Shown: positions 8,541 through 26,147, numbered from the stretch's first letter. The stretch is 26,147 nt of DNA from Verrucomicrobiota bacterium (GCA_041176065.1 JBEDDU010000051.1:1-26147); one strand, 5' to 3'. The notes: a model not told the origin generated them from the sequence alone. Program-made: numbers and translations.

Positions 8541-9773
8541 TCAGGCCGACTCGCGGACGGTCAGGCGGAATTTGCCTGAGTCTTCCGGGGTGAGCAGGCC
8601 GACCGTGCAGGAGGTGACAGGGGCGCCCAGCAGGACGGTAAGTCGTTCCTTGAGCGTCTCCTGGGCGGAAGCCAGGCCATCGTCGGTCATCGCAGGCAGG
8701 AGGTTCAGGTGCGCCGATCCGTCCGGTTGCTGACGCAGCTGGTAGTGGGCGACGCCGCTGAGTCCTTTGAAGGCCGCGTCGACCTGCCGGGTGGTCACGA
8801 TCCGTCCGTCGGCGCCACGAAGGGCGTCGCGTTTACGGCCGTGCACCAGGTAGCCGTCGGCGACACGTTCGACGAAGTCGCCGATCTCGTAGCGCAGCAA
8901 GGGCAGGTATGGGTTCGTCAGCGTCGTGACGAGGAGCTCGCCGACGCCGGCGGCCGCCGTCGTTTCGAGGAGCGCGGTCTCGGGGCTCGGGCGCATGACG
9001 CCGTCGACGTCGACCAGCAGGTGGCCGGTCTCGCTCGAGCCGTAAAGGTCGATGACCGGCACGCCGAAGACGCGCTCCATGATGGTGCGATGCGTGACGC
9101 TGGTGAATTCGTAACTCGTCAGGATGAACCGCAGGGAAGGGAAGCGTCGGCCGTGCCTTTCGCAGTGCAGGGCGAACCAGGCCCCGTGGACGGGGTCCAC
9201 GTCGAGGAAGGCGGGCGCCCAGCCTGCGACTTCGTCGGCCATCACGGCCAGCTTGTCATCGCCGAGGCTGAAGGGGATCCGCGTCTGGTTCACGTAACGG
9301 CTGTCGCCGAGCGTGCGTTGTTCGAGGTTGAGCCAGCGGTTGTAGCAGCTGACGCCGCTGCAGCCCGGCGTGGTCAGGACGGCGCGACGCAGGCTGAGCC
9401 GTTCTCCGAGGAGCCCGGCGATGAAGGGATTCCTGGTCAGGGCGCGACGTTCCTGCTCGGCCCACCAGGTCTTGCCGAAGACCACGCGCACGCTGGCGCC
9501 GGAAGTGCCGGAAGTGCTTTCCTCCTCGATGAGTCCGCGCGACAGCAAGGACTCGACCGACAGTCCTGGGGCAAGGAAACCCTCGGGGGAGTGCTCCCGC
9601 AGCTGGCTCTTCGTGATGCGCGGAAGGTCCGACAGGCGCGTGGCAGGATCGGCGAAGGCCGATTGCCAGACGGATGAATCGTAGAAAGGGACTCCGGCGG
9701 TCTGGGCGATCGCGTCTCGCAGGCTCGAGACATCGTCGCTGGCGCGGGCGCTGGGAGCGGTCGTGGTCGGCAT
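8541..9773 (-). CDS. Adenylate-forming enzyme, phenylacetate-CoA ligase (PaaK)/CapK-like
   Basis: ANL-family motifs STSGTSG, YGSSETG, LLRYEIGD, HGRKRD and C-terminal SGKFR. Start is uncertain (ATG 9773 chosen; 9821 is the alternative). Confidence 0.82.
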   Translation of the reverse strand: MPTTTAPSARASDDVSSLRDAIAQTAGVPFYDSSVWQSAFADPATRLSDLPRITKSQLREHSPEGFLAPGLSVESLLSRGLIEEESTSGTSGASVRVVFGKTWWAEQERRALTRNPFIAGLLGERLSLRRAVLTTPGCSGVSCYNRWLNLEQRTLGDSRYVNQTRIPFSLGDDKLAVMADEVAGWAPAFLDVDPVHGAWFALHCERHGRRFPSLRFILTSYEFTSVTHRTIMERVFGVPVIDLYGSSETGHLLVDVDGVMRPSPETALLETTAAAGVGELLVTTLTNPYLPLLRYEIGDFVERVADGYLVHGRKRDALRGADGRIVTTRQVDAAFKGLSGVAHYQLRQQPDGSAHLNLLPAMTDDGLASAQETLKERLTVLLGAPVTSCTVGLLTPEDSGKFRLTVRESA

Positions 9774-9880
9774 GAGCCCAAGGAGCAAGCAAGCGGCGTG
9801 AAAGCAAAACGCCGACGTCATTTAACGGAGGAAACTTTGCATATAGCTGGTTTCGGCCCCGTCGGCTGGAACTATCAGGA

Positions 9881-9914
9881 TTGAACGCGGTCTTTCGTGT
9901 TCATATCACCCCGT
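9881..9914 (+). promoter_or_regulatory. Candidate leaderless promoter for the Gfo/Idh/MocA gene
   Basis: TTGAAC (9881)-N17-TATCAC-N5-ATG (9915), with no SD motif. Confidence 0.4.
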
Positions 9915-11201
9915 ATGCGATTACCCCGTCGTTCATTTCTGCGTAAGGCCGCCGTCGCCGCGCTTGGCTTCACGATCATCCCGCGCCACGTCCTCGGTCG
10001 CGGCTTCGTCCCGCCCAGCGAGACCCTGAACCATGTGATCGTCGGCTGCGGCGGCATCTCGACGATGCACTCCGAGCCTCGCATGACGGGCAAGAACCGC
10101 ATCGTCGGCATCTGCGACGTCGACGCCCAGCGCGTGCAGAAGAAGCTCGAGCGCATCAAGCAGTCCGGCGGCGGCACGCCGATGACGGCCGAAGATTTCC
10201 GCGAAGTGATCGCCTTGCCCGACGCCGACGTCGTCCACGTCTGCACGCCGCCGCATTGGCACGGCGTCATCGCCGCCATGGCCGCCCGTCGCGGCAAGGC
10301 CGTCTGGTGCGAGAAGCCGCTGACGCGCACGATCGGGGAGGGTATCGCCCTCAACCGCGTCGTACAGCAGACCGGCGTACCTTTCCGCGTGAACACCTGG
10401 TTCCGCCTCAATCGCACGAATTACTACGGCGTGGGTCCGGCCCGCGAAATTCGTCGCGTCGTCGCGAGCGGCGTCCTCGGCGGTCCGCTGACGGTGCGTC
10501 TCGCCCCGGTCGGCGGCATCCAGTGGAAGGTGAACCTCTGGACTGGTAAGCCGGACCTTCAGCCTCAGCCCGTTCCCTCCCATTTGAACTGGGACCTCTA
10601 CTGCGGTCCGTCGCAACTGATTCCGTACCACCCCCATCGCTGTCATGGTTCCTTCCGCGGTTACTGGAACTTCGACCAGGGCGGCCTGGGCGACATGGGC
10701 CAGCACTTCCTGGATCCGGTGCAGTATTTCCTGGGTAAGGACGGGGAATTCCCGGTCAGCGTCGAGTGCGACGCCCCGCCTCAGGACGCCATGGCCTGCG
10801 GCGTCTGGAAGACCGTCACGCTGACTTACAAGGACGGCACGCGCATCATCCTGGAGTCCGAACTTGCCGAGCGTAATCCGGAGAACCCCTTCCTCGAAGG
10901 ACCGAACGGCAAGCTCTTCGCCGGCATGCGTTGCAGCCGTCCTGAGCTGCTCGCCAAGGCCGCCGAATTCCCGCTGCCGGAATATCAGGAAGATGACTTT
11001 GACCTCTGCGCCCGCGAGAGGCGGCCGTTCGGCTACGGCGTCAGCGAGGCTTTCCGCAGTTCGACGCTCGTGAACCTCGCCGCCCTGAGCGTCCGTCTCG
11101 GCCGCAAGCTCACCTTCAAGGCCGACGGTTCCGGCTTCGTCGGTGACGACCAGGCCAACCAGCTCCATTCTCCCGCGCTCCGCGGTAACTGGTCCATCTG
11201 A
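9915..11201 (+). CDS. Gfo/Idh/MocA-family oxidoreductase with Tat signal peptide
   Basis: Twin-arginine PRRSFLRKAAVAALG, Rossmann motif VIVGCGG, VCTPPHWH, WCEKPL, catalytic DMGQHFLD. Start is ATG 9915. Confidence 0.92.
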   Translation: MRLPRRSFLRKAAVAALGFTIIPRHVLGRGFVPPSETLNHVIVGCGGISTMHSEPRMTGKNRIVGICDVDAQRVQKKLERIKQSGGGTPMTAEDFREVIALPDADVVHVCTPPHWHGVIAAMAARRGKAVWCEKPLTRTIGEGIALNRVVQQTGVPFRVNTWFRLNRTNYYGVGPAREIRRVVASGVLGGPLTVRLAPVGGIQWKVNLWTGKPDLQPQPVPSHLNWDLYCGPSQLIPYHPHRCHGSFRGYWNFDQGGLGDMGQHFLDPVQYFLGKDGEFPVSVECDAPPQDAMACGVWKTVTLTYKDGTRIILESELAERNPENPFLEGPNGKLFAGMRCSRPELLAKAAEFPLPEYQEDDFDLCARERRPFGYGVSEAFRSSTLVNLAALSVRLGRKLTFKADGSGFVGDDQANQLHSPALRGNWSI

Positions 11202-11224
11202 GCCCACTCCCGCCCGTCACGATC

Positions 11225-12112
11225 ATGAAGCCTTTCGTCCTCCTCTTCGCCTGCGTCGCCGGCCTCGTCGGTCACGCCGCCGGAGCCCCCGCCGACGCCA
11301 CCTTCGCGGAACTCGCGGTCCCGGAGAAGCGCCTCGCCGCCCAGCAGGCTATCCTCGACCACTCCCGCGGCTTCACCAACGCCTCGCCCGAAGCCAAGGC
11401 CTGGTTTGAGCGCGTGCGCACGGCGGCCAAGACCGTCGAAAATCCTGAGGCGCAGGCCGCGCTGCAGCAGGTCTTGCTCTTCGATCCGAACACCAAGCCG
11501 CGGCTCCCGCTCAATCCAAAGCAGCCGAACACCTACGAGGATCCGGAAGGCACCACCCCGGAGACCAAGCTCGCCCACCTCGAGCGCGTGCTCGATCAGC
11601 GCCGCTCCGCCAAGGAGTATCCGCTGACCGTCGAAGAGCTCGTCGCGCTCACGAAGCATGAGGATTTCGCCACCGCCCAGCGCGCGAACCGACTGCTCCG
11701 CCGCGTCAGTTCCTCCGCCGCTGCTCCGATCCTCTGGGAACGTCTCGCCAAGCTCTCGCAACGTTCGCAGGTGCAGGAAGTGGAGGATGAGATCCTCCGG
11801 TTGCCCTTGTCTCAGGCCATCAAGCATACCCCGGTCGAGTTCGCCGGCACCTCGCTCGCTTCCAAGGCGGCCTGGGTCCGCATCGCTGCCGTCCGCGCTT
11901 CCAAGAGTTCGAAAGTGCGCACCGCCCTCAAGGCCGCGCTGCTCCCGCTGCTCAAAGGTCCGGCCAACGAACTAACCGAAGCCGCCTGGGCCGCCGTGCC
12001 CCGGATCTTCGCCGAGGCCGACCGCGCCGCGCTGACGGAGGCCGCGCAAGGCCTCTCCGAGCGACTCGCGCCCAAGGCCAAGGCCGCGTTGGAAGCCTTG
12101 CCCGCCAAGTAA
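11225..12112 (+). CDS. Hypothetical secreted alpha-helical protein
   Basis: 295 aa with a Sec signal (MKPFVLLFACVAGLVGHAAGA). Ala/Leu/Glu/Lys-rich helical content, host-like codon bias, and 23 nt downstream of the oxidoreductase. Confidence 0.72.
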   Translation: MKPFVLLFACVAGLVGHAAGAPADATFAELAVPEKRLAAQQAILDHSRGFTNASPEAKAWFERVRTAAKTVENPEAQAALQQVLLFDPNTKPRLPLNPKQPNTYEDPEGTTPETKLAHLERVLDQRRSAKEYPLTVEELVALTKHEDFATAQRANRLLRRVSSSAAAPILWERLAKLSQRSQVQEVEDEILRLPLSQAIKHTPVEFAGTSLASKAAWVRIAAVRASKSSKVRTALKAALLPLLKGPANELTEAAWAAVPRIFAEADRAALTEAAQGLSERLAPKAKAALEALPAK

Positions 12113-12131
12113 TCCTCCCGTCGCTTGTCGC

Positions 12132-12166
12132 TTGCCGTGGGGCGGGGTGACCCTTGCTATGGTCGC
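12132..12166 (+). promoter_or_regulatory. Candidate leaderless promoter for aroK
   Basis: TTGCCG (12132)-N17-TGCTAT-N6-ATG (12167), with no SD. Confidence 0.4.
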
Positions 12167-12736
12167 ATGTCGCCCGTGGCCAACAAGGACAACTCCCCGA
12201 ACCTGATCCTCGCCGGATTCATGGGCACGGGGAAGTCCGCGCTCGGACGGCAGCTGGCGAAGCGCTGGCGCCGGCCTTTCTACGACACCGACGAACTCGT
12301 CGAGAAACTCGCGGGCGCCACGATCGCCGACATCTTCGCCCAGCACGGCGAGGAGCACTTCCGCGGCCTTGAGCGCCAGGTCGTCGAGTCCATGCTGCCC
12401 GACTGCGGCGCCGTCATCGCCTGCGGCGGCGGCCTCGTCGTGCCTCCCGGCATGGGTGAGCTCGTCCGTTCCAAGGGGATCGTCGTGACGCTGTTCGCTT
12501 CCGTGGACACCATCCTGCGCCGCACGGCCGGCAACTCCCGGCGTCCGCTGCTCAAGGGCGAAGACCCCGAGGCCCGCATCCGCGAGCTCATGAAGAAGCG
12601 CGAGCAGGCCTACATGCAGGCGGGCATCGCCGTCTACACCGACGGACGTTCGCTGCAGCAGCTCTGCGTGATCGTCGAGCGCGTCTACGAGCGCGAGGCG
12701 CGGGCCTTGCTCAGGTCGCGTCCGAAGCCGGAGTGA
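12167..12736 (+). CDS. aroK: Shikimate kinase
   Basis: P-loop LAGFMGTGKS, DTDELVE, GEEHFRGLE, VIACGGG, RRPLL. Start is ATG 12167, 189 aa. Confidence 0.95.
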   Translation: MSPVANKDNSPNLILAGFMGTGKSALGRQLAKRWRRPFYDTDELVEKLAGATIADIFAQHGEEHFRGLERQVVESMLPDCGAVIACGGGLVVPPGMGELVRSKGIVVTLFASVDTILRRTAGNSRRPLLKGEDPEARIRELMKKREQAYMQAGIAVYTDGRSLQQLCVIVERVYEREARALLRSRPKPE

Positions 12737-13391
12737 CGAACGGGTCGCCTTCGGGCGGCTCGTCGCGGAACCGTTGCACGACGGCGAGGAACTCCGACCG
12801 GTCGACCGCGAAGGCGCCCAGGCTGGCCAGGTGCGCCGTCGGCACCTGGCAGTCGATGAGGACGTAGCCGGCGGCGGCGAGGCGGGCGACGAGCGTCGCG
12901 AAGCCGACCTTGGAGGCGTCGGCCTTGAGGTGGAACATCGATTCGCCGTGGAAGAGCCGGCCGAGCGCGACGCCGTAGAGGCCGCCGACCAGTTCGCCTT
13001 GCCAGGATACCTCGATGCTGTGGGCCACGCCGCGGCGGTGCAGGTCGCAGTAGGCGGCGATCATCTCCTCGGTGATCCAGGTGCCGTCCTGGCCGGGGCG
13101 GGGGACCTCCGCGCAGCGTCGCATGACGGTCTCGAAGGCCCGGTCGAAGGTCACCGACCAGCCTGCCTTGCGCATCGTCTTGCGCAGGCTGTCGGTGAGG
13201 CGGAAGTCCGCCGGACGCATCACGAACCGCGGATCAGGGCACCACCATTTCACCGGTTCGCCGGCGGAATACCAAGGGAAGACGCCGGCGCGATAGGCGC
13301 CGATGAGGGTGTCCGCGTCCAGCCTGCCTCCGCGGGCCAGCGGCGCCTGCGTAGGGCCTTTCGCCGGGTCTCCGCGGGTCCATTCCTGCAT
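12711..13391 (-). CDS. aat: Leucyl/phenylalanyl-tRNA--protein transferase
   Basis: Contains AYRAGVFPW, WWCPDPR, WITEEMIAAY, AHSIEV, GGLYGV, GESMF, ASKVG, IDCQ. 226 aa. Confidence 0.95.
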   Translation of the reverse strand: MQEWTRGDPAKGPTQAPLARGGRLDADTLIGAYRAGVFPWYSAGEPVKWWCPDPRFVMRPADFRLTDSLRKTMRKAGWSVTFDRAFETVMRRCAEVPRPGQDGTWITEEMIAAYCDLHRRGVAHSIEVSWQGELVGGLYGVALGRLFHGESMFHLKADASKVGFATLVARLAAAGYVLIDCQVPTAHLASLGAFAVDRSEFLAVVQRFRDEPPEGDPFVTPASDAT

Positions 13392-13426
13392 CGGCGGACA
13401 GTCGCCGAGGCGGAGCCCGCGGGCAA
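13392..13426 (-). promoter_or_regulatory. Candidate leaderless promoter for aat
   Basis: Minus strand TTGCCC (13426)-N17-GACTGT-N6-ATG (13391). It has the same geometry and the same -10 hexamer as the der promoter candidate. Confidence 0.5.
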
Positions 13427-13428
13427 GT

Positions 13429-13764
13429 TCAGTCCTTGGTGATGTTGTAGACCGACGGGATCGAGATGCCGAGCTCGGCGGCGATCTCGCGGACCGGGGC
13501 GCCCTTGCGGCGCATGGCCTGGGCCTTGTTGCGCATGCTGTCCGAAATCTGGGCGCGGGCGCGGTTGGGGCGTGAGAGCAGCTTGATCAGACGCTTGGCC
13601 AGCTCGGGCTTCGAGAGGCTCGCGACTTCGCGTTCGATCATCGACTGGCGCTCGCTGTGCTCGTCTTCCCAGGCCTGCACGGCCAGGTCGCGGGCCTTGG
13701 AGAGGGCGGCGCGGACATAGGCGTCCTTGGAGCTGAAGGCGGAGGGGTCGAGGTCGATTTTCAT
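13429..13764 (-). CDS. Small protein with C-terminal resolvase/Hin-type helix-turn-helix
   Basis: 111 aa from ATG 13764 (MKIDLDPS...). C-terminal GAPVREIAAELGISIPSVYNITK is a clear HTH. Strong GC3 bias, and no recombinase catalytic domain. Confidence 0.82.
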   Translation of the reverse strand: MKIDLDPSAFSSKDAYVRAALSKARDLAVQAWEDEHSERQSMIEREVASLSKPELAKRLIKLLSRPNRARAQISDSMRNKAQAMRRKGAPVREIAAELGISIPSVYNITKD

Positions 13765-13839
13765 AAGTGGGTGCGGAGGTTCGGGCGTCACCTGAGTTTG
13801 TCTCCGACAATCCTGAGGTTAGGCCAGCACCCTCAAGGG

Positions 13840-13881
13840 TTTTATAATATTCCCAATTGTCAAACTTTGGTAAAAAAATTT
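13840..13881 (-). promoter_or_regulatory. AT-rich promoter region upstream of the HTH gene
   Basis: The most AT-rich stretch in the window. The minus strand carries TTGACA (13863-13858), TATTAT/TATAAA and a T-tract. The exact -35/-10 pairing is ambiguous. Confidence 0.55.
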
Positions 13882-13917
13882 CACCCTAACCGCCGCCGCC
13901 ATCCTCCTGCGTCTGTC

Positions 13918-15371: not shown

Positions 15372-15491
15372 GCCGATTTGAGACACTTTTGATACTGAAA
15401 GCCCGTCGCGTCAACACGGGACGCGTCATTGACACCCGCCCCTCGTAGCCCTTCATTTGCCCTCTTTTCCCTCAGGGAAGCCCGCCTACCG

Positions 15492-16562
15492 ATGACCCAG
15501 AATACGGACGACCTACGCATCCGCAGCCAGCACCCCCTGCTGACTCCCGCCCTCGTGCTCGCCGAACTGCCGGTCTCGGAGCGCGCCGCCGAGGTCGTCG
15601 CCGCCGCCCGCCGGGACGCCGCCAAGGTGATCTCGGGCCAGGACGACCGTCTGATGGTCATCGTCGGACCTTGCTCCGTCCATGACACCAAGGCCGCCCT
15701 GGAATATGCCGCCCTCCTGAAGAAGGAAGCCCGGAAGCATGCTTCCGAGCTCCTCGTGGTGATGCGCGTCTACTTCGAGAAGCCGCGCACCACGGTCGGC
15801 TGGAAGGGGCTCATCAACGACCCGCAGGTCGATGGCTCTTTCCGCATCAACGACGGCCTCCGCCTCGCGCGCGGCCTGCTTTCGCAGATCGCCGAAGCCG
15901 GCCTGCCGGCCGCGACCGAGTTCCTCGACCCGATCACGCCGCAATACGTGGCCGACCTCGTCGCCTACGGCGCCATCGGGGCGCGCACCACGGAAAGCCA
16001 GATCCACCGCGAGCTCGCCTCCGGCCTCTCGATGCCCGTCGGCTTCAAGAACGGCACCGACGGCTCGGTCCAGGTCGCCGTCGACGCCTGCCTCTCGGCC
16101 CGTTCCTCCCACTGGTTCCCGTCCGTCACCAAGGACGGCGTCGTCGCCATCTTCCAGACGTCGGGCAACCCTGACGCGCACGTCATCCTGCGCGGCGGCT
16201 CCCGCACCGGCCCGAATTACGGCGCCGAATTCGTGACCGACGCCGCGGCCCGCATCCAGAAGGCCGGCCTCACGACCCGTCTCGTCATCGATTGCTCCCA
16301 CGGCAACAGCTCCAAGGACCATCGCCGTCAGCCGCTCGTCGCCGCCGACATCGCCGCGCAGGTCGCCGCGGGCTCCCGCGTCATCGCCGGCGTGATGATC
16401 GAGAGCCATCTCGCCGAAGGCCGTCAGGACTGGAAGGGCAAGGAGGCTTCGGCCTACGGCTGCAGCATCACCGACGCCTGCATCTCCTTCGAACAGACCG
16501 TCCCCGTGCTCGAGGGACTCGCCGCCGCCGTCCGCGCCCGTCGCGCCCTGCCGGCTTCCTGA
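15492..16562 (+). CDS. aroG: 3-deoxy-7-phosphoheptulonate (DAHP) synthase, class I (AroF/G/H type; isoenzyme specificity not determinable)
   Basis: Contains VGPCSVHD, RVYFEKPRT, GWKGLINDP, IGARTTESQIHRELASGLS, VGFKNGT, IDCSHGNS, MIESHL, SITDACI. Start is ATG 15492, 356 aa. Confidence 0.95.
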   Translation: MTQNTDDLRIRSQHPLLTPALVLAELPVSERAAEVVAAARRDAAKVISGQDDRLMVIVGPCSVHDTKAALEYAALLKKEARKHASELLVVMRVYFEKPRTTVGWKGLINDPQVDGSFRINDGLRLARGLLSQIAEAGLPAATEFLDPITPQYVADLVAYGAIGARTTESQIHRELASGLSMPVGFKNGTDGSVQVAVDACLSARSSHWFPSVTKDGVVAIFQTSGNPDAHVILRGGSRTGPNYGAEFVTDAAARIQKAGLTTRLVIDCSHGNSSKDHRRQPLVAADIAAQVAAGSRVIAGVMIESHLAEGRQDWKGKEASAYGCSITDACISFEQTVPVLEGLAAAVRARRALPAS

Positions 16563-16570
16563 ACTTCGCC

Positions 16571-17053: not shown

Positions 17054-17066
17054 GCCCCGCCTGACC

Positions 17067-18242
17067 ATGGATTCCTCCGGACGTTTCGTGGCGCGGCATG
17101 TCGCGACCTTGCCCAAGTCGGGCATCCGCGACTTCTTCGCCATCGTCTCCAAGATGAAGGACGCGGTCTCGCTCGGCATCGGCGAGCCCGACTTCGTCAC
17201 GCCTTACCACATCCGCGAAGCCGCGATCTCGTCCCTCGAGAAGGGCCGCACCTCCTACACGGACAACCGCGGTACGCAGCAGTTCCGCGAGGAGATCTCG
17301 CGCTACGTGGCCCGCCATTACGGTCCGGAATACGATCCCGAAACCGAGATCCTTGGCACCATCGGCGTCTCCGAGGCCCTCGACATCCTCCTGCGCGCCA
17401 CCCTCAACCCGGGCGACAAGGTCCTCTACCACGAGCCCTGCTACGTGAGCTACGCCCCGAGCGTCGCGCTCTGCCACGCCGAGGCCATCCCGATCCGCAC
17501 CGTCTCCGCCGACCAGTTCGCGCTCGATCCGGCGGCCCTGCGCGCCGCCTGGCAGCCGGGCTGCAAGCTCCTCGTCCTCAACTTCCCGACCAACCCGACC
17601 GGCGGCACCGCCGACCGCGCCAAGCTCGAAGCCATCGCGAAGTTCGCCATCGAGAAGGACCTGCTCGTCGCTTCCGACGAGATCTACTCCGAACTCACCT
17701 TCGAAGGCGACCACGTCTCGATCGCGTCGCTCCCGGGCATGCGCGAACGCACGGTCTTCCTGCATGGTTTCTCGAAGGCCTTCGCGATGACCGGTTTCCG
17801 CATCGGTTACGCCTGCGGCCCCGCCGCCGTCATCGACGGCATGCTCAAGGTGCACCAGTACGGCATCATGTGCGCCCCGATCATGAGCCAGGAGGCCGCC
17901 GTCGAGGCGCTCCGCAACGGCCGTGATTCGATGCTGCACATGCGCGACAAGTACCGCGAGCGCCGCGACTTCATCGTCCGCCGCTTCAACGAGCTCGGGC
18001 TGAAGTGCCATCTCCCGCGCGGCGCGTTCTACGCCTTCCCGGACATCACTTCGACGGGCATGGATTCGATGACCTTCGCCCAGAAGCTGCTCGAGCAGCA
18101 GAAGGTCGCCATGGTCCCCGGCACCGCCTTCGGCGCGGCCGGCGCCGGCTTCTGCCGGGCTTCGTTCTCGACCAGCTACGAGCGCATCCACGAGGCCGGC
18201 GAGCGGATCGCCCGCTTCCTGGACGGCATCCCGCGTCGCTGA
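17067..18242 (+). CDS. PLP-dependent aminotransferase class I/II (YugH/AlaT-like)
   Basis: Contains SGIRDFF, SLGIGEPDF, YTDNRG, NFPTNPTG, SDEIYSEL, PLP-lysine GFSKAFAMTGFRIGY, GAFYAF and VPGTAFG. 391 aa. Confidence 0.93.
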   Translation: MDSSGRFVARHVATLPKSGIRDFFAIVSKMKDAVSLGIGEPDFVTPYHIREAAISSLEKGRTSYTDNRGTQQFREEISRYVARHYGPEYDPETEILGTIGVSEALDILLRATLNPGDKVLYHEPCYVSYAPSVALCHAEAIPIRTVSADQFALDPAALRAAWQPGCKLLVLNFPTNPTGGTADRAKLEAIAKFAIEKDLLVASDEIYSELTFEGDHVSIASLPGMRERTVFLHGFSKAFAMTGFRIGYACGPAAVIDGMLKVHQYGIMCAPIMSQEAAVEALRNGRDSMLHMRDKYRERRDFIVRRFNELGLKCHLPRGAFYAFPDITSTGMDSMTFAQKLLEQQKVAMVPGTAFGAAGAGFCRASFSTSYERIHEAGERIARFLDGIPRR

Positions 18243-18252
18243 GCATCCTTGC

Positions 18253-18287
18253 TTGCTAGCCGGGCGGGTAGCCCTGACTGTCGTCCC
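18253..18287 (+). promoter_or_regulatory. Candidate leaderless promoter for der-fmt
   Basis: TTGCTA (18253)-N17-GACTGT (18276)-N6-ATG (18288), with no SD. Confidence 0.5.
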
Positions 18288-19943
18288 ATGGAACGGAACA
18301 CTGAACTTTCCCGCGCGGTAGCCATCGTGGGCCGTCCCAACGTCGGCAAGAGCCGCCTGTTCAACCGGCTCGTGGGACGGCGCATCTCGATCGTGCACGA
18401 CCAGCCGGGCGTCACCCGTGACCTGATCACGGCCGACGTCTTCGAAGGCCGCTACACCCTCATGGACACCGGTGGCATCGGCCTCTACCGCGCCGAGCTG
18501 ACGCCCAAGGTCGTGGCCGACGCCGTCGAGGAGCAGGTGGACTTCGCCCTCGCCGCCGCGGCGCTCGTGCTCCTCGTCGTCGACGCCTCCGAAGGCTGCG
18601 CCGCGCTTGACCTCGAGGTCGCCGCGAAGCTCCGCCAGGCCGGCAAGAAGGTGATCGTGATCGCGAACAAGGCCGACACCGAGGAGCGCGACGGGCTGAT
18701 GTCCGAGTTCTTCGCCCTCGGTTTCGGCGAGCCTCTCCTCATCTCGGCCGAGCACGGCCGCGGCATCCCGCAGCTCCAGGCCCTCATCCTCAAGCTGCTC
18801 GGACCCGAGCCGGAGACGCCCCGCGAAGAAGGTCCGCGCCCGATCCGTCTCGCCCTCGCGGGTCGTCCCAACGTCGGCAAGAGCTCCCTCGGCAACCGTC
18901 TGCTCGGCGGCTCGCGCCTCATCGTCAGCGAAGTCGCCGGCACCACGCGCGATCCCGTGCGCGCGCGTCTCTCCCGCACCAAGGCCGACGGCAGCCAGGC
19001 GAAGTTCTCGCTCGTCGACACGGCCGGCCGCCGCACCGCGAACAAGCGCGACACCCTCGACTTCTTCTCGCAGATCCGCGCCGACGAGATCCTCGCCGAG
19101 ACCGACGTGGTCTTCCTGGTGCTCGACGCCGGCCAGGGCGTCACGCGCATCGACAAGCAGCTCGCGGGCGAGCTCGCCCTCCTGGGCTGCGGCCTCGTCA
19201 TCGTGGTCAACAAGTGGGACCTCGCGAAGACGGCTTTCCGCGAGAAGAACATCGACGGCTTCGAGGACGAGGAGGAGTTCCGCGCGAAGTTCCGCTCCGC
19301 CATCCGCCGCGAGCTCTTCTTCCTGCCCGATCCGCCCATCCTCTTCGTTTCCGCCCAGACCGGCCTCCGCGCCGAGGACATGCTCGACGCCGCCGAAGGC
19401 GTCTTCGTCCGCGCCGGTACGGCGATCTCGACCGGCCGCCTCAACCGCGTCGTCCAGGACCTGATGATCAAGCGGCCGCCCCGCATGGTCTCGGGCAAGC
19501 GCTTCAAGTGCTACTACGTGACGCAGGTCTCCAAGCGTCCCATCCGCTTCCGGCTGTTCTGCAATTCCGAGGAACGCCTCGAGGACGCGTACCAGCGCTT
19601 CCTCGTGAAGGGCGTGCATGAGAGCTTCGACCTCGCCGGTGTCCCCCTCTTCCTCGACATCGTGGGCAAGCCCAAGCAGACCGGGCGTCGCGCAGGAGGT
19701 TCCGGCGCCGCCGGCGGCGCTCTGCCCGGCGAAGAGGGCGAGGCCCGCAAGCCGACCGCCAAGGTCCCCGGCAAGGCCGTCATCTCGGCCGCGCCGAAGA
19801 AGGCCGTGGGGCCGTCCGGACCGCGTCTGGGCAAGTCCAAGAATCCGCGCAGCAAGGTCGGTCCGGTCCGCAAGAAATCCTACACCCGCTGGGATAAGCC
19901 GCGTTCGCTGAAAGGCCGCGCCGCGCGCCAGGCCCGCAAGTAA
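18288..19943 (+). CDS. der: Ribosome biogenesis double GTPase Der (EngA) with a basic C-terminal extension
   Basis: Two G domains (GRPNVGKS/DTGG/NKAD and GRPNVGKS/DTAG/NKWD), then a KH-like domain (FKCYYVTQ...F). 551 aa. Confidence 0.96.
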   Translation: MERNTELSRAVAIVGRPNVGKSRLFNRLVGRRISIVHDQPGVTRDLITADVFEGRYTLMDTGGIGLYRAELTPKVVADAVEEQVDFALAAAALVLLVVDASEGCAALDLEVAAKLRQAGKKVIVIANKADTEERDGLMSEFFALGFGEPLLISAEHGRGIPQLQALILKLLGPEPETPREEGPRPIRLALAGRPNVGKSSLGNRLLGGSRLIVSEVAGTTRDPVRARLSRTKADGSQAKFSLVDTAGRRTANKRDTLDFFSQIRADEILAETDVVFLVLDAGQGVTRIDKQLAGELALLGCGLVIVVNKWDLAKTAFREKNIDGFEDEEEFRAKFRSAIRRELFFLPDPPILFVSAQTGLRAEDMLDAAEGVFVRAGTAISTGRLNRVVQDLMIKRPPRMVSGKRFKCYYVTQVSKRPIRFRLFCNSEERLEDAYQRFLVKGVHESFDLAGVPLFLDIVGKPKQTGRRAGGSGAAGGALPGEEGEARKPTAKVPGKAVISAAPKKAVGPSGPRLGKSKNPRSKVGPVRKKSYTRWDKPRSLKGRAARQARK

Positions 19944-19946
19944 CGC

Positions 19947-20939
19947 ATGCCCCGGAGACTGGTCCTGCTCGGTTCGGATGAGATCGCGCTCCCGGCTTTC
20001 GCCGCGGCCCGCGCCTTGCCCGACACCGAGGTCGTGGCCGTCTACACGCAGCCGGACCGTCCCGCCGGCCGCGGTCAGGAAGTCCGCCCGAACCCCGTCG
20101 CCGCCTGGGCCCGCGCCGAAGGCCTGCTTCTGCGTCAGCCTGAGAAACTGGGCCCGGAGGATGCCGCGCAGCTCGCCGCGCTCGGCGCCGACCTCGGCGT
20201 GGTCATGGCCTACGGGCAGCTGCTGAAGTCGGACTTCCTCGCCGCCACCCGTCTCGGCTTCGTCAACTTCCACGGCTCGTTGCTGCCCGCCTTGCGCGGC
20301 GCGACGCCGGTCGAAGGCGCCCTCGCGCTCGGTCTCCCGGAGACGGGCGTCTCGCTCCAGCAGGTGGTGCTCAAGCTGGATGCGGGTCCTTTGCACGCTT
20401 CGCGCGGCCTTCGTCCTCAGCCGGGCGAAGCCCGCGCCGCTCTTCGCGCCCGCCTCGGCGTCGTCGCCGGCGAACTCGCGGCCGCCGCGTTGCCCGCGGT
20501 GCTCGCAGGGACGTCGATCCCTGTGCCGCAGGACGAATCCCTCGTCACTTACGCGCGTCGTCTCAACCGGGCCGACGCGCCTCTCGATTTCCGTCAGCCG
20601 GCGACCGCGCTGCGTCAGCGCGTGCTCGCGCTCGAAGGCTGGCCGGGTTCGACCTTCGACCACCGTTGCGTCACGATCAAGGTCGGCGCGGCGCAGGCGG
20701 AGGAGGGCGGTCCGGCCGGCGTTCCCGGCCGGATCCTCGCCGCCGACCGCTCCGGCGTCCGCGTCGCCTGCGGTCAGGGTGTCCTGGTGCTTACTCACCT
20801 GCAGCGCCCGGGCGGCAAGATGCTCCCGGCGGGAGAGTTCCTGGCGGGCTTCCCTTTGGCCGTCGGCGAGACGCTCGCTTCCGCCGACATGCCGGCCTTC
20901 GTCGCTTCGGCCCCGTTCCCCCGGGCGCCCAAGGCGTAA
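19947..20939 (+). CDS. fmt: Methionyl-tRNA formyltransferase
   Basis: Contains VYTQPDRPAGRG, VVMAYGQLL, VNFHGSLLPALRGATP, ETGVS, LDAGP, GWPG and LQRPGGK. 330 aa. Confidence 0.94.
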   Translation: MPRRLVLLGSDEIALPAFAAARALPDTEVVAVYTQPDRPAGRGQEVRPNPVAAWARAEGLLLRQPEKLGPEDAAQLAALGADLGVVMAYGQLLKSDFLAATRLGFVNFHGSLLPALRGATPVEGALALGLPETGVSLQQVVLKLDAGPLHASRGLRPQPGEARAALRARLGVVAGELAAAALPAVLAGTSIPVPQDESLVTYARRLNRADAPLDFRQPATALRQRVLALEGWPGSTFDHRCVTIKVGAAQAEEGGPAGVPGRILAADRSGVRVACGQGVLVLTHLQRPGGKMLPAGEFLAGFPLAVGETLASADMPAFVASAPFPRAPKA

Positions 20940-20943
20940 TCGC

Positions 20944-20977
20944 TTGATAAGCATTCCCCGCCTGCTGTCATAGGGTC
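20944..20977 (+). promoter_or_regulatory. Candidate leaderless promoter for the lpt-hprK unit
   Basis: TTGATA (20944)-N16-TGTCAT-N6-ATG (20978), with no SD. Confidence 0.4.
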
Positions 20978-23050
20978 ATGCGCGCCGTCCTTCTCTGCCT
21001 CAGCCTGGCCGCGGGCGCCTTGGCGCAGCCGAAGGATCTTGCTTTGCAGCAGGTCACGGGCGGCGTCTTCGCCGGTTTTTCGGAAGATGCGAAGGCCGAG
21101 AAGGTCTGGGAGGCTTCCGCCCGGGAGATGCGTCCGGCCGCGAAGGAAGGCCAATGGGAGATGACGGACATCACACTGCTTTCGTTCCGCGACGCCCGGC
21201 CGCTCGCCCGCTTCGTCAGTCCCAGCGGCGTGATGACGCCGGCCGCGCGGGCCGCGCAGGGCACGGACATCCTCCGCGCGAAATCGCCGAGCTTCGAGCT
21301 GGCCGGCAAGGGCTGGAATTGGCGTTCGACCCCGCAAGGCGACTCTTTCGCGATCCTCTCGGAAGTCGTCGCCGAACTCGATCTCGCCAAGCCCGCGGCT
21401 CGCCGCCTTCGCCTGCGCGCCCTCCGTCTCGACGCCTCTCCTGCGCCCGGCGGGACGCTCATGGTCTTCGAGGGCGGCGTGGTCGCGGAGCGCGCGGGCG
21501 AGCGCACTACCTGCGAGCGCCTTGAATGCCTGGTCAGCGACGGTCCCGGCGGCGACGCCGAGGTGCGTTCGCTCGTCGCCACCGGGCGCGTCGTGCGCGT
21601 GGTCGGCGCCCAGACCTTGCGCGGCGACCGCGCCGCCTTCGATCCTAAGGAAGATTCCGCTGAACTCGTCGGTCACGTCGAGATCGACGAGCCGGAGGCC
21701 AAGGGTTCCGCCCAGCGCCTCCGCCATCAGCCCAAGCTGGGACTCACGGAACTTTATGCCGGCGACGGCCAGCCGGTGCGCCTGCAGCTGCGTCGCAAGC
21801 AGGAGGCGCCGGCCGACCTCACCGGCGCGCGCGTCACGCTGCGTCGCGAAGCGTCCGCCGGGATCACCCGCATCGAGGTCCAGGATGACGCCACCTATGT
21901 CTCCGCCGATGCTCGCCTGAGCGCCCGTCGGATGGTCGCCACCGAAGATCGCGCGGGCGACGGTCAGCTCGAGGCCTCCGGTGAAGTCAGAGGCCGGCTG
22001 GAAGGTTCCGAATTCAGTTCCGGTCGGGCCCGTTGGGATCGCAAGACCCGCGTCGTCGACCTCAACGAGAGCCCTCGTCTCCGCGAGAAGCGCGGTCTGG
22101 AAGCGGCGGGTTTCTCCATCCGCACCGACGCGCTCAAGGACCGCCTCGAGATCCGTTCGGCGCCGGGTGAGCGCGCCGCCCTGCGTCTTCCTGCCGAGGA
22201 AAACGGCGGCGTGCCCGGTCTGGCCGAGGCCGACCAGATCGTCGTCGTCACCGAGGACGGCGCGATGCAGGCCCAGCTGCTCGGCGCGGTGCGTTACGTC
22301 GCCGGCCAGGTCGTCACCTCTTCCGACCAGATGGTCGCCTTCGCCTTGCCCGTGCCGAAGAAGCGCGGCGAATACGCCCTGAACAAGGTCATCCTGGCCG
22401 GCACGGTCCGCTATGCCCAGCCCGGCCTGCGCTGCCTCGGCGAACGCCTTGACCTCACTCCCGCGGTCCAGGTCGAGGAGATCCTCGCGCAGGACGCGCT
22501 CGTCGGCCAGCCGCGTCTCCTGACCTTGTCGGGCGGCGTGGGACCGACCCGTCCGCGCCTGTTCCTTTCGCAGGGCGCGGGCCAGGAGGTCGGCTTCCTC
22601 GCGGACGCGCATGAGGTGCTGCATACTCCGGCGCTCACCAAGTTCTTCCTGCGGGGCGACGTCTCGATCGACTCCGCTTCCACGGACGCCACCTGCGACC
22701 TGCTGGAAGGACTGGCTTCGCCCGATAAATCCGGCCGTCTGGTGGCCCGCCGCGTGGTCGGCCGCGGCAACGTGGGCGTCGTCGCCGGCGGCGCCAGCGC
22801 GAAGGGGCGGAGCCTGGAGATGAATCCTGAACTGGGCACGGCGCGTCTGTTCGGCGACGCGCGGATCCTCGACAAGAACGGCAACGAAGGCGTGCCCGCC
22901 AAGGAGGTCACTTACGACCACAAGGCCAAGGCCTGGCGCATGGATTCCGCTCCGGACGACCTGAATCCCGGACAGGTGGTCCGCCCGAAGATCTTCCTCG
23001 GCCGTGACTTCACCTTGCCGGAGGTCAAAAGCCTCGACAAGGCACGCTGA
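20978..23050 (+). CDS. Large periplasmic LptC/LptA (OstA)-like beta-jellyroll protein
   Basis: Signal peptide (MRAVLLCLSLAAGALA|Q), repeated OstA-like beta motifs (e.g. ATGRVV...LRGDRAAFD, ASGEV...SSGRARWD, GRGNV...AKGRSLEMN...ARLFGDARI), and position directly before lptB. 690 aa. Confidence 0.7.
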   Translation: MRAVLLCLSLAAGALAQPKDLALQQVTGGVFAGFSEDAKAEKVWEASAREMRPAAKEGQWEMTDITLLSFRDARPLARFVSPSGVMTPAARAAQGTDILRAKSPSFELAGKGWNWRSTPQGDSFAILSEVVAELDLAKPAARRLRLRALRLDASPAPGGTLMVFEGGVVAERAGERTTCERLECLVSDGPGGDAEVRSLVATGRVVRVVGAQTLRGDRAAFDPKEDSAELVGHVEIDEPEAKGSAQRLRHQPKLGLTELYAGDGQPVRLQLRRKQEAPADLTGARVTLRREASAGITRIEVQDDATYVSADARLSARRMVATEDRAGDGQLEASGEVRGRLEGSEFSSGRARWDRKTRVVDLNESPRLREKRGLEAAGFSIRTDALKDRLEIRSAPGERAALRLPAEENGGVPGLAEADQIVVVTEDGAMQAQLLGAVRYVAGQVVTSSDQMVAFALPVPKKRGEYALNKVILAGTVRYAQPGLRCLGERLDLTPAVQVEEILAQDALVGQPRLLTLSGGVGPTRPRLFLSQGAGQEVGFLADAHEVLHTPALTKFFLRGDVSIDSASTDATCDLLEGLASPDKSGRLVARRVVGRGNVGVVAGGASAKGRSLEMNPELGTARLFGDARILDKNGNEGVPAKEVTYDHKAKAWRMDSAPDDLNPGQVVRPKIFLGRDFTLPEVKSLDKAR

Positions 23051-23069
23051 CCGCTTTCCTCTTCTTCGC

Positions 23070-23810
23070 ATGGCCGCATCGAGCGACAAGGGCGTCATCC
23101 GGGCGCAGGCCTTGGCCAAGCATTACGACGCCAAGGTGGCCGTCCAGGACGTCAGCCTCAGCTTGCAGGCAGGCGAGATCGTCGGTCTGCTCGGTCCGAA
23201 CGGGGCCGGCAAGACCACCACCTTCTACATGGTCGTCGGACTCATCCCGGCGACGCATGGCCGCGTCTTCCTCGACGGGCAGAACATCACCGCGGAGCCC
23301 ATGTGGCGCCGGGCGCGCGCGGGCGTCGGTTACCTCCCGCAGGAAGCCTCCGTCTTCCGCAAGCTCACCGTCTGGGAGAACGTCATGGCCGTGGTCGAGA
23401 CGCTCGACCTCAACGAGCGTGAACGCAAGGAACGAACGGCGGAGCAGCTGGCCGAGCTCGGGCTGGAGAAACTCGCGCGTCAGCCGGCGTTCACCCTTTC
23501 CGGCGGCGAACGTCGCCGTCTGGAGATCGCCCGCGCCCTGGCCACCCGCCCGCGCTTCCTGCTCATGGACGAGCCGTTCAGCGGGGTCGACCCCATCTCG
23601 GTCGCCGAAGTCCAGGCCATCATCCGCAAGCTCAAGGGCAGGGGCATCGGCATCCTGATCACGGATCATAACGTCCGGGAGACCCTCACCATCGTGGACC
23701 GGGCCTACCTCATCCACCAGGGGCGCGTCCTCGTCTCCGGGACCCCCGCTGAAATCGTGGACAATCCCGAAAGCCGACGCCATTATCTGGGCGAAGGTTT
23801 CAAACTCTGA
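23070..23810 (+). CDS. lptB: LPS export ABC transporter ATP-binding protein
   Basis: Contains [53 protein letters not shown] and [11 protein letters not shown]. 246 aa from ATG 23070. Confidence 0.96.
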
Positions 23811-23815
23811 CGTCC

Positions 23816-24790
23816 ATGTCCGACCCCGCTCCCGATACGCGCCCCGAATCCGTCTCGGTGCGTGAGTTCCTCACGTCCTTCCAGGACATGCTGCAGATGG
23901 AGCTCCTCGCCGGGGCCGAAGGTCTCGACAACATGATTTCGGAGAAGTCGTTGAACCGTCCGGCCCTCGCCGTCACGGGATACTTCAAGGAGTTCGCCCA
24001 CAGACGCCTGCAGCTGTTCGGCGCCGGCGAGATGGCCTACCTGAGCGATCAGTCCGCCGACGTGCGCGAGAAGCTCCTCGCCGACGTCTTCTCGAAACGG
24101 ATTCCCGCCGTGGTCATCTCCCGCGGCCTGGAAGTCGATGACGTCCTGCTGCGTTGCGCCGACCGCCATCGCGTCCCGTTGATCCGCACCCAGCTCAAGT
24201 CCAAGGACTTCTCGGCCGAGGCCACCGTCCTGCTGGAGGAGAAATTCGCCCCGCGCACCAACATCCACGCGACGTTGGTGGACATCAAGGGCGTCGGCGT
24301 GCTCATGCGCGGCGCCTCCGGCGTGGGCAAGAGCGAGTGCGCCCTCGCCCTCATCGAGCGCGGCCACTCGTTGGTCGCGGACGATTACGTGATCGTGACC
24401 TTGATCGGCGACCGCGAGCTGCAGGGGATGGCGAAGGAGCTCAACCGCGGCTACATGGAGTGCCGCGGCATCGGGATCATCAACGTCGCCTCGATCTTCG
24501 GCGTGCGTTCCGTCCGGCGCGAGAAGCGCGTGGACCTCGTCGTCACCTTCGTCCTGTGGCAGCCCGGCATGGACGAGGAACGCTCGGGCCTGGAGGTGGA
24601 GACCTACGAGATCCTCGGCCGCAAGGTGCCGCATATGACGATCCCGGTGCGTCCGGGACGTGACATGGCGCGGTTGGTCGAAGTGGCCGCCTCGGTGCAG
24701 GCGCTCCGGGCCATGGGCCATGATTCGGCCAAGGAATTCAGCGACCGCCTCATCCAGTTCATGGCGAAGGACAAGGCGGGCGAGGCCTGA
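23816..24790 (+). CDS. hprK: HPr(Ser) kinase/phosphorylase
   Basis: Contains [19 protein letters not shown], Walker [18 protein letters not shown], signature [11 protein letters not shown], and [10 protein letters not shown]. 324 aa. Confidence 0.95.
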
Positions 24791-24791
24791 G

Positions 24792-25439
24792 CTACTTCTT
24801 CCGTCCGTCCCAGCGGCAGTCGGCCATCACGCGGAGGCAGACTTCGCGCAGGTCGAACAGCGTGGCTTCGAGGTCGTGCGCCGCTTCGGCCGACGAGAGG
24901 CGCGCGGCGGCGGGCAGTCCGGCGGTGAGGCCGATCGAGTAGTTGATGGCCGCGAGGGCGCGTTTCATGTGCACGAGCGCCAGGGGGAGGTCGCCGGTGT
25001 CCGTGGCGTTGATGGCCATGACCATCTGGTGCTGCGCGTCCCAGAAGGAGTGGATGATGTCGGTGGCTTCGAGGGGGGTGAGCTGCGCGCCGGCGTCGAC
25101 GCAGAGGCGGCGGAAGGACTGCGTGAGCTGCAGGGAAAGCGCCCGGGCGACGACGTAGACCGGGTGCTGGTGGATGCAGTAGGGAAGGTCGGGTCCTTCG
25201 TCCTCGTCTTCGTTGACTTCTTCGGGGCCTTCCCCGGGGGCCCAGTCGGCGTTCTCCCAGCCCATGCGGCGGGCGCTGATATCCAGCCGGTCAGGCAGGT
25301 TCTTGACCTCGTTGTAATACGACAGGAAGCGCCCGACCTCGAGGTCGTTGCGCTGCAGGTAGCCGGACCAGTCCGCTTCGCCCCATGAGGCGTTGCCGGA
25401 ACCGTCGAAGTCGCCCTGGGGTTGGTCGCCATCGTCCAT
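24792..25439 (-). CDS. Acidic hypothetical protein
   Basis: C-terminal part of the 406-aa track ORF. Host-like codon bias begins near 25450. Start is ATG 25439 (25448 and 25451 are alternatives). Acidic N-half (WGEADW...NEDEDE) and a helical C-half. Confidence 0.75.
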   Translation of the reverse strand: MDDGDQPQGDFDGSGNASWGEADWSGYLQRNDLEVGRFLSYYNEVKNLPDRLDISARRMGWENADWAPGEGPEEVNEDEDEGPDLPYCIHQHPVYVVARALSLQLTQSFRRLCVDAGAQLTPLEATDIIHSFWDAQHQMVMAINATDTGDLPLALVHMKRALAAINYSIGLTAGLPAAARLSSAEAAHDLEATLFDLREVCLRVMADCRWDGRKK

Positions 25440-25495
25440 GGGGTGCATCATTGGGTGCTTTCCCCCCGTTGCAAACCCCTTGTGGTGAAAATGCC

Positions 25496-25529
25496 TTGTC
25501 CCGGTCGCCCCGAACGTGGCTAATCCGTC
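25496..25529 (+). promoter_or_regulatory. Candidate leaderless promoter for trpD
   Basis: TTGTCC (25496)-N17-GCTAAT-N5-ATG (25530), with no SD. Confidence 0.4.
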
Positions 25530-26147
25530 ATGGCCTTGGCCCTTCCTGACCTGACCGCCGCCCTGTCGGCCGGTCGCGACCTCGCCCCTGCGGAGGCCGC
25601 CGCGGCCGCCTTGGCCATGGCTGACGCCGCCGTCACGGATGCGGACAAGGCGGCCTTCCTGCTGGCCCTGGCGCGCAAAGGAGAGACGGCCGCGGAAGTC
25701 ACCGGCTTCGCCCGCACCTACCGAGACCTGGCCCGCCGGACCGACTTCGGCGACTGGCCGGCGAAGGCCATCGACATCGTGGGGACCGGCGGCGACCGCT
25801 CCGGCAGCTTCAACATCTCCTCCGCCAGCGCGCTCATCGTGGCCGCGGCCGGCGTGCCCGTGCTCAAGCACGGCAACCGTTCGATCACTTCGAAGTCGGG
25901 CAGCGCCGATTTCCTCGCCGGGCTCGGCGTCGTGCTCGACGCCGCGGACGAGCAGCTGCTCCGCGGCCTGCGCGAGGCGAACTTCTGCTACCTCTACGCG
26001 CCGGCTTTCCATCCGGCGTTCAAGGCCGTGCTCGGCGTGCGCAAGCAGCTGGCCGAGGGCGGCGCCAAGACCGTCTTCAACGTGCTCGGGCCGCTCATCA
26101 ACCCCGCGCGCCCGGCGTACATGGTCGTGGGCGTCTACGATGAACGC
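25530..26147 (+). CDS. trpD: Anthranilate phosphoribosyltransferase, 3'-truncated (not in the supplied ORF track)
   Basis: Manual translation from ATG 25530 gives MALALPDL...KGETAAEVTGFA...IDIVGTGGDRSGSFNISSASA...VLKHGNRSITSKSGSADFL...FHPAFK...KTVFNVLGPLINPA..., open to the window end. Confidence 0.95.
   Translation, partial: MALALPDLTAALSAGRDLAPAEAAAAALAMADAAVTDADKAAFLLALARKGETAAEVTGFARTYRDLARRTDFGDWPAKAIDIVGTGGDRSGSFNISSASALIVAAAGVPVLKHGNRSITSKSGSADFLAGLGVVLDAADEQLLRGLREANFCYLYAPAFHPAFKAVLGVRKQLAEGGAKTVFNVLGPLINPARPAYMVVGVYDER

Follow-up and report, generated by a model that had tools for sequence, protein, structure and literature searches.

The question raised by this locus is why eight genes in a 26,147-nt stretch of verrucomicrobial DNA (GCA_041176065.1, JBEDDU010000051.1:1-26147; hereafter the window, meaning the whole stretch) carry a TTG at almost the same distance from their ATG. 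The T of this TTG lies 35 nt before the ATG in der, aat, aroK and a hypothetical gene (24792), and 34 nt before it in a gene of an lpt locus, trpD, an oxidoreductase gene and a PaaK-like gene. The original prediction read these TTG-N31/32-ATG strings as -35-anchored promoters of leaderless mRNAs. Exact regular expressions recovered all eight with the hexamers and spacings it had given and, as it had also said, no Shine-Dalgarno (SD) sequence precedes them, GGAG, GAGG, AGGA and GGGG all being missing from -20 to -3. Our analyses indicate, with a probability that we put at roughly 0.8, that these are housekeeping promoters yielding leaderless mRNAs, where the position of the transcription start site (TSS) and the mode of translation are deduced from the geometry.

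The window is contig C51 of a 1.75-Mb assembly (G000; 326 contigs, 67% GC, 78% complete) of an uncultured bacterium whose kin are metagenome-assembled genomes of Opitutales (Opitutia, Verrucomicrobiota) from freshwater lakes and rivers. Long high-GC3 frames served to train the three-periodic Markov model used for gene calling, which is blind to upstream motifs and takes as the start the candidate that maximises coding log-odds. A gene was classed as a transcription-unit head if its upstream neighbour was divergent, if it faced a contig edge or if the same-strand gap before it measured 36 nt or more, and as internal if the same-strand gap was below 30 nt. The positional TTG peak anticipated for operon-first relative to internal genes, and above shuffled sequence, is strongly positive genome-wide. 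Of the 863 heads, 84 have TTG at -35 (binomial P 5e-46), 65 have it at -34 (P 2e-29) and 37 have it at -36, compared to 10.9 +/- 4.2 at other offsets, and the largest TTG count at any offset in 200 dinucleotide-preserving shuffles was 26; the 424 internal genes have two at -35 and two at -34. No TTG peak was found at downstream in-frame ATG or GTG codons, at deep internal in-frame ATGs or at out-of-frame ATGs near heads. Upstream in-frame candidate starts also peak (24 and 30 versus ~7), and therefore the caller sometimes starts genes too late, as its first version did with der. The TTG is not itself an alternative start codon, since neither 35 nor 34 is a multiple of three.

In an unbiased scan of 3-, 4- and 5-mers at all offsets, the words TTG, TTGC and TTGCC scored highest or nearly so at -35 (z 15-18), and CTTGC at -35/-36 was also among the top positional words; the sole comparable signal was a general CCC at -3 that is common to internal genes. 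Summed over all candidate starts, the excess comes to ~150 genes, or 18-21% of heads and ~12% of genes, and the share of heads is a minimum, as the count covers TTG-bearing -35 boxes only. A repeated element as the source of the peak was ruled out, as the 111 sequences concerned are all different.

Might the pattern have arisen by chance or through the choice of starts? Two of the eight starts had been picked with the pattern in mind and the caller is crude, yet we give this explanation next to no credence: the calls were blind to the motif, P is <1e-29 and the shuffles never came near the observed counts. Moreover, the string CTTG-N20-22-ANNNT-N6-ATG, whose detection needs no gene calls, occurs 45 times in the genome versus 3 times reversed and 8 times with N12 in place of N6. 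The starts are also fixed by orthologous N-termini and signal peptides. The caller agreed with the noted start in six of the eight genes in its first version and in seven in its second, where the exception was the 24792 hypothetical gene, called 12 nt further upstream. When orthologues from ~20 congeneric species around the der locus were compared by tblastn, the protein alignments began at residue 1 on the noted ATG for all eight genes. All eight starts are hence independently supported by orthologue alignments, signal peptides and missing upstream ATGs, and this includes the two (24792 hypothetical and PaaK-like) that the original prediction had conceded were chosen partly by the pattern, where orthologous N-termini bear the choice out.

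Aligned on their start codons, TTG-positive genes display TTGCC followed by A at -11, in 62% of the -34 set, and by T at -7, in 55-66%. C stands at -1 in 80-84% of them versus 61% elsewhere, and the start codons of 114 such genes are ATG in 89, GTG in 25 and TTG in none, so that +1 is always a purine. ANNNT at -11 is present in 35 of 111 TTG-positive heads (32%), compared to 1-9 at neighbouring offsets, and in 25 of 527 TTG-negative heads (5%), the same as at neighbouring offsets there. The enrichment is thus confined to TTG-positive heads, and therefore the -35 and -10 boxes are coupled; put the other way, of 60 heads bearing ANNNT at -11, 35 also bear TTG at -35/-34, and these make up nearly the whole excess over background. 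A start-proximal -10 class lacking the -35 TTG was not found among the 527 TTG-negative heads. The T at -12 of a full TATAAT is not conserved, since TANNNT at -12 occurs in 3 of 111 heads and positions -13/-12 are mostly C or T, and the description of the element as a conserved -35 with a degenerate -10 holds well. With the composite TTGN3-N16-18-NANNNT-d-RTG, where d is the distance from the -10 box to the start codon, the count rises from 1-2 for d below 5 (a hard left edge) to 11 at d=5 and 70 at d=6, then falls to 30 at d=7 and 4-14 for d=8-20. The pile-up is at the canonical -10-to-+1 distance, and almost none of the cases would set +1 inside the gene.

The same kind of promoter precedes tRNA genes. 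TTGAC or TTGCC lies at -52 to -36 from the mature 5' end in 24 of 38, with -10 boxes such as CATCTT, CAGACT, TAAGTT or GATAGT 16-18 nt after the TTG[AC]C. Because the tRNA promoters are of this same type, a strong -35 combined with a yANNNT -10 appears to be the general housekeeping promoter of the organism. The primary sigma factor (a 739-aa frame on contig C211) matches SigA/RpoD chains of solved structure (E 1e-97 to 1e-101), from which its regions 2.4 (ATWWIRQAITR) and 4.2 (VTRERIRQIEAKALRK) differ little or not at all. An altered sigma specificity behind the weak -10 was ruled out by these canonical regions, and the weakness therefore belongs to the promoters and not to the sigma factor. 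Of the features of group 1 sigma promoters, a TTGACA-like -35, A-11 and T-7 at 16-18 bp, a pyrimidine at -1 with a purine at +1, and matching sigma regions 2.4 and 4.2 are present, and T at -12 is not. Sigma-70-family genes found in the 78%-complete assembly number only four (contigs C211, C26, C236 and C76; loci L255-L258).

That the TTG block is instead a regulator site, an alternative-sigma site or a leader RNA element is highly improbable. Such a reading would account for the two thirds of cases with a weak -10 or none, and for a pre-gene hexamer preference of TTGCCn and not TTGACA. It is hard to reconcile, however, with the coupling of the block to A-11/T-7 at the canonical 16-18 nt, with TTGAC plus yANNNT likewise standing before tRNA genes, with a sigma-70 family of which only four genes were found and whose primary member is canonical, or with genes that are functionally unrelated.

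In the mechanism that we favour, the promoters would belong to the housekeeping sigma factor (group 1, RpoD-type) and abut the coding sequence, with a -35 hexamer beginning 35 or 34 nt before the start and a minimal -10 (A-11, T-7) lying 16-17 nt downstream of the -35. RNA polymerase would then take the first base of the start codon, A or G, as +1, and the resulting mRNA, having neither a 5' leader nor an SD sequence, would be translated by direct recognition of its 5'-terminal AUG or GUG. This layout would serve, as a lower bound, the ~18-21% of transcription-unit heads and ~12% of genes given above. Two marks of leaderless genes are seen in the genome, namely a promoter signal at a fixed distance in heads but not in internal genes, and an AUG or GUG start without SD.

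Several findings weigh against this mechanism or lend it less than might appear. Two thirds of TTG-positive heads have no recognisable ANNNT at -11, and the -10 hexamers originally given for aroK and the lpt-locus gene have G and not A at -11. C at -1 is also present in 61% of genes without the motif, and is thus weak extra support. In orthologues the offset of the TTG drifts over 34-37 nt, so that one or two leader bases are possible in some species. Finally, an assembled contig from an RNA library (X4 record 13, window positions 18080-18332) spans the gene upstream of der together with the der start.

The drift bears on whether the promoters really start a few bases upstream and give near-leaderless mRNAs with leaders of 1-8 nt, which would be translated by the general non-SD route of this genome. 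Besides TTG offsets of 36-37 in some orthologues, the shoulder at -36 to -50 in the genome-wide profile, the position of the peak at d=7-10 and not d=6 in the sister genera g48 and g50, and the fact that the whole genome works without SD sequences all fit this idea. The peak is, however, only two bases wide and the composite gathers at d=6-7, the canonical -10-to-+1 distance, and we consider very short leaders unlikely as the general explanation.

The RNA-library contig bears on read-through. It comes from a comparison of four freshwater metatranscriptome runs with window positions 9600-26147, in which the matches were short assembled contigs of related strains, and its extension over the der start possibly reflects read-through transcription or DNA contamination in the library. 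One may therefore ask if the promoters are minor or conditional, with the short-spacer genes (der, aat, aroK and the lpt-locus gene) mostly expressed by read-through and the leaderless mRNA a by-product. The contig joining der to its upstream gene and the lack of a terminator in the 37-54-nt spacers would fit. Nevertheless, we judge this very unlikely, given that the boxes are kept across ~20 species despite spacer drift, that the same layout is found at divergent pairs, where read-through is impossible, and that one third of all 36-50-nt spacers bear the motif.

Gene spacing is informative in its own right. TTG at -35/-34 is found in 31 of 98 same-strand spacers of 36-50 nt versus 4 of 424 gaps below 30 nt, and the onset of TTG-bearing spacers is sharp at 36 nt, which is the length of the promoter. 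About one third of the 36-50-nt same-strand spacers are, in other words, promoter-only. In nine divergent pairs, 54-141 nt apart, both genes carry the motif, a number that is not significant alone (6.3 expected by chance). The PaaK-like/oxidoreductase pair is counted among these nine; the hypothetical/trpD pair has the same two-sided layout at the noted start, the caller's start being 12 nt upstream.

No SD signal precedes the genes outside this promoter class either. GGAG, GAGG or AGGA occurs in -20 to -3 of 11% of internal genes versus 10% of a control window and hence is not enriched, position-specific frequencies upstream of starts show no purine-rich block, and the k-mer scan yielded no SD-like word in either heads or internal genes. 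The 16S gene was not found in the 78%-complete assembly of the window itself, and four congeners were used instead (loci L251-L254); their 16S 3' end is GGATCACCTCCTTTCT, and the check on the anti-SD that had been proposed came out in favour of its retention. With the anti-SD thus read from congeners, the host fits the SD-scarce class with a CCUCC anti-SD. Other Opitutales families that were sampled have SD-like words before 18-41% of internal genes. The start context is C-rich and unlike an SD, an example being the CCCATG of der at 18285-18290: CCC at -3 to -1 is found in 122 of 720 heads and 54 of 408 internal genes, compared to ~4% expected, and ACC is also enriched.

Among the window loci, der (EngA) has a putative promoter (18253-18290, plus strand) that consists of TTGCTA, 17 nt, GACTGT and 6 nt before the ATG at 18288, within an intergenic gap of 45 nt. 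The peptide MERNTE(L/I)SRAV starts at this ATG in 24 of 25 same-genus loci, which are all those with a full-length match, the remaining one (L025) ending at a contig edge. TTG lies 33-37 nt 5' of the ATG in 21 of 21 distinct orthologous upstream sequences, and the CTTGCTTGCTA block and GAC..T at -12 to -7 are kept across congeners while the spacer diverges. The same -10 hexamer recurs before aat, which encodes the Leu/Phe-tRNA protein transferase (13389-13426, minus strand; TTGCCC, 17 nt, GACTGT, 6 nt, ATG with its A at 13391). Here the spacer is just 37 nt, the stop codon of the upstream gene lies immediately 5' of the -35 box, and TTG is at -34 to -37 in 16 of 16 orthologues, again with a diverging spacer. 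The upstream stop codon directly precedes the -35 box at der and the lpt-locus gene as well. The latter encodes a secreted protein of 690 aa (20944-20980, plus strand; TTGATA, 16 nt, TGTCAT, 6 nt, ATG 20978) and follows a gap of 38 nt; its N-terminus, MRAVLLCLSL, is a Sec signal peptide that fixes the start, and all 16 orthologues have TTG at -34/-35 and keep GTGTCAT. The shikimate kinase gene aroK (12132-12169, plus strand; TTGCCG, 17 nt, TGCTAT, 6 nt, ATG 12167) begins 54 nt past the upstream gene; all 13 orthologues have TTG at -35/-36, and the block TTGCTATG is kept.

Two divergent arrangements account for the other four genes. The promoter of the 24792 hypothetical gene (25437-25474, minus strand; TTGCAA, 16 nt, AATGAT, 7 nt, ATG with its A at 25439) stands back to back with that of trpD (25496-25532, plus strand; TTGTCC, 17 nt, GCTAAT, 5 nt, ATG 25530) in a 90-nt spacer. 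Orthologues of the former start with M(D/H/Q/R)DGD at the same ATG, several species having no upstream in-frame ATGs, and TTG is at -34/-35 in 18 of 18; trpD has it at -34/-35 in 15 of 15, with GTGGCTAAT kept. The GFO/IDH/MocA oxidoreductase gene (9881-9917, plus strand; TTGAAC, 17 nt, TATCAC, 5 nt, ATG 9915) is divergent from the PaaK-like gene (9771-9807, minus strand; TTGCTT at -34, ATG with its A at 9773) across a 141-nt spacer. The oxidoreductase N-terminus MRLPRRSFLR, a Tat-type signal, is kept from residue 1 in congeners, and TTG recurs at -34/-35 in each of the 13 orthologues. The -10 of the PaaK-like gene is weak; its start was picked independently by the coding-potential caller, and TTG is at -34 in five of five distinct orthologous upstream sequences.

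The gene for DAHP synthase (aroG; 15457-15494, plus strand), originally listed as an exception, turned out to have TTGCCC at -35 from its ATG at 15492. With TTG within -34 to -36 in 9 of 18 orthologues, it is a ninth candidate case on sequence grounds, weaker and partly conserved. Pfam identifies the gene at 15492 as DAHP synthase and supports the names given earlier to the oxidoreductase, aroK, aat, der and trpD; the PaaK-like, lpt-locus and 24792 proteins had no Pfam match at 1e-5, and no Rfam family matched anywhere in the window.

Over the congeners, all distinct orthologous upstream sequences of the eight genes, DAHP synthase excepted, have a TTG 33-37 nt 5' of the ATG, and gene-specific -10 blocks are kept while the spacers between the boxes diverge across the ~20 species. 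As these species are kin, such conservation amounts to footprinting and not to independent replication. An ungapped column-conservation profile of nine heads was blurred by indels of 1-2 nt and is not used as evidence.

For more distant relatives, a gene-based test was applied to samples of 110-200 kb. The caller is weak in lower-GC relatives, where it assigns many TTG starts, and all-candidate and pattern-only tests were relied on there. The d=6 peak is present in G023, a genome of the same genus with 49% GC, and in G088 of the sister genus g51 (22 of 86 heads), and is weaker in three other Opitutales families. In small samples from the genera g48 (G090) and g50 (G091) the peak is shifted, with TTG at -38 or d=7-10, and this shift of 2-4 nt could mean that leaders there are very short and not wholly missing. 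The peak is absent or unclear in g49, in another order of the class and in three other genomes of the phylum. By the pattern-only test on 60 family members, forward versus reversed counts were 1200/244 in g1, 556/116 in g51, 311/129 in g50 and 430/318 in g48. Across 80 genomes of the phylum the distribution is patchy, the ratio of N6 to N12 strings being 5.6 in G000, ~3 or more in G033, G051, G072, G068 and G153, and ~1 in many. The layout thus recurs in Verrucomicrobiota and is strongest in the host genus, and strong also in the sister genus. The host genus, a single GTDB genus, spans 49% (G023) to 67% (G000) G+C and 1.3-2.7 Mb, with the promoter-to-start layout common to both ends.

A broader proposal, on which we would place no better than an even bet, is that a streamlined freshwater Opitutales clade made up of the host genus and its sister genus has abandoned SD initiation while keeping the anti-SD, that about a fifth of its transcription units are leaderless through promoters read mainly by their -35, and that many of its spacers are bare promoters of 36-50 nt. 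Leaderless expression would then, if this is true, be reached by a second route that differs from the -10-anchored one of Actinobacteria and Deinococcus, and gene finders that seek a -10 motif near starts would miss it.

The nearest known systems are the leaderless promoters of Actinobacteria and Deinococcus-Thermus, the 'group C' of GeneMarkS-2, described in M. tuberculosis, D. radiodurans and D. deserti (PMC6028130, PMC3160421, PMC3898074, PMC4007540). Common to them and to the host is a sigma-70-type promoter fixed at the start of operon-first genes that have no SD, with a -10 that ends 6-8 nt before the AUG or GUG and tens of percent of transcription units served. The conserved element in those phyla is TANNNT at -10, with 'no conserved -35 motif' (PMC3898074), and most such leaderless genes are without a classical -35 (PMC12340547). 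In the host, unlike in these phyla, TTG at -35/-34 is nearly obligatory, T-12 is unconserved and ANNNT occurs in only a third, and whereas their genomes keep SD sequences on other genes, the host genome shows none. The host thus departs from the group C pattern, its -10 being a minority signal that never occurs without the -35 TTG and its remaining genes lacking SD sequences. Compared to sigma-70 promoters of E. coli (TTGACA, 17 bp, TATAAT, 6-7 bp, +1), the geometry is the same, sigma regions 2.4 and 4.2 are conserved and tRNA genes have TTGAC(A), but the host -10 is reduced to yANNNT and placement on the start codon is common; leaderless TSSs in E. coli amount to 0.4% (PMC4782308).

Leaderless genes have been predicted widely in bacteria (PMC3160421, PMC6028130). 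The main texts of these two papers do not mention Verrucomicrobiota, and a literature search combining leaderless with Opitut* found nothing relevant. In Akkermansia muciniphila, however, Cappable-seq on mouse caecum placed ~10% of TSSs on annotated start codons (Ettwiller et al., 2016, PMC4782308), and leaderless transcription is therefore not new in the phylum. The original prediction had suggested that this lineage may use leaderless mRNAs with a conserved -35 and a degenerate -10, and knew of no description of this in Verrucomicrobia; the suggestion is supported, and the novelty is reduced by the published Akkermansia data. The promoter logo in that species is biased at both -35 and -10, with YR at -1/+1 (PMC4782308). 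Akkermansia belongs to the same phylum but a different class, the evidence there is experimental and that for the host sequence-based, and the study has neither a -35-anchored class nor statistics on position relative to starts; genomes sampled in other classes of the phylum gave a weaker signal than the host genus. SD scarcity with a retained CCUCC anti-SD is known in Bacteroidota, Akkermansia and 'Verrucomicrobia bacterium IMCC26134' (PMC10783764). The host is likewise without SD enrichment in any gene class, with the anti-SD kept in congeners. That literature deals with leadered SD-less initiation, and coupling of promoter to start codon is unreported in it (PMC10783764).

What we describe is hence not a new mechanism, since leaderless transcription is already well established and, for one verrucomicrobium, mapped. 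New relative to the literature searched are the -35-anchored form with a minimal -10, its frequency in a high-GC, SD-free genome, the promoter-only spacers and the distribution within Opitutales. Heavy use of leaderless mRNAs would then not be tied to TANNNT-dominated promoters, and a canonical sigma factor with a strong -35 and a minimal -10 could suffice at 67% GC and without SD sequences. For annotation, starts in these abundant uncultured lake and river bacteria could be fixed from the promoter, as with der and the 24792 hypothetical gene; gene finders tuned to an SD or a -10 box will mis-call such starts. The genome may also offer a natural system in which translation of 5'-terminal AUGs can be studied beside that of SD-less leadered and internal genes.

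Two minor observations concern individual elements. A 'tRNA-Stop(tta)' of 90 nt called by ARAGORN in the host assembly (contig C33, 2559-2648) has a weak D arm and mismatched stems and is probably a false positive. Another genome of the phylum, G047, contains many near-identical copies of an element of ~45 nt that starts with CTTGGCGCCTCTGCGCCTCTGCGCGAG and ends in CCGGATG, and which appears to be a dispersed repeat.

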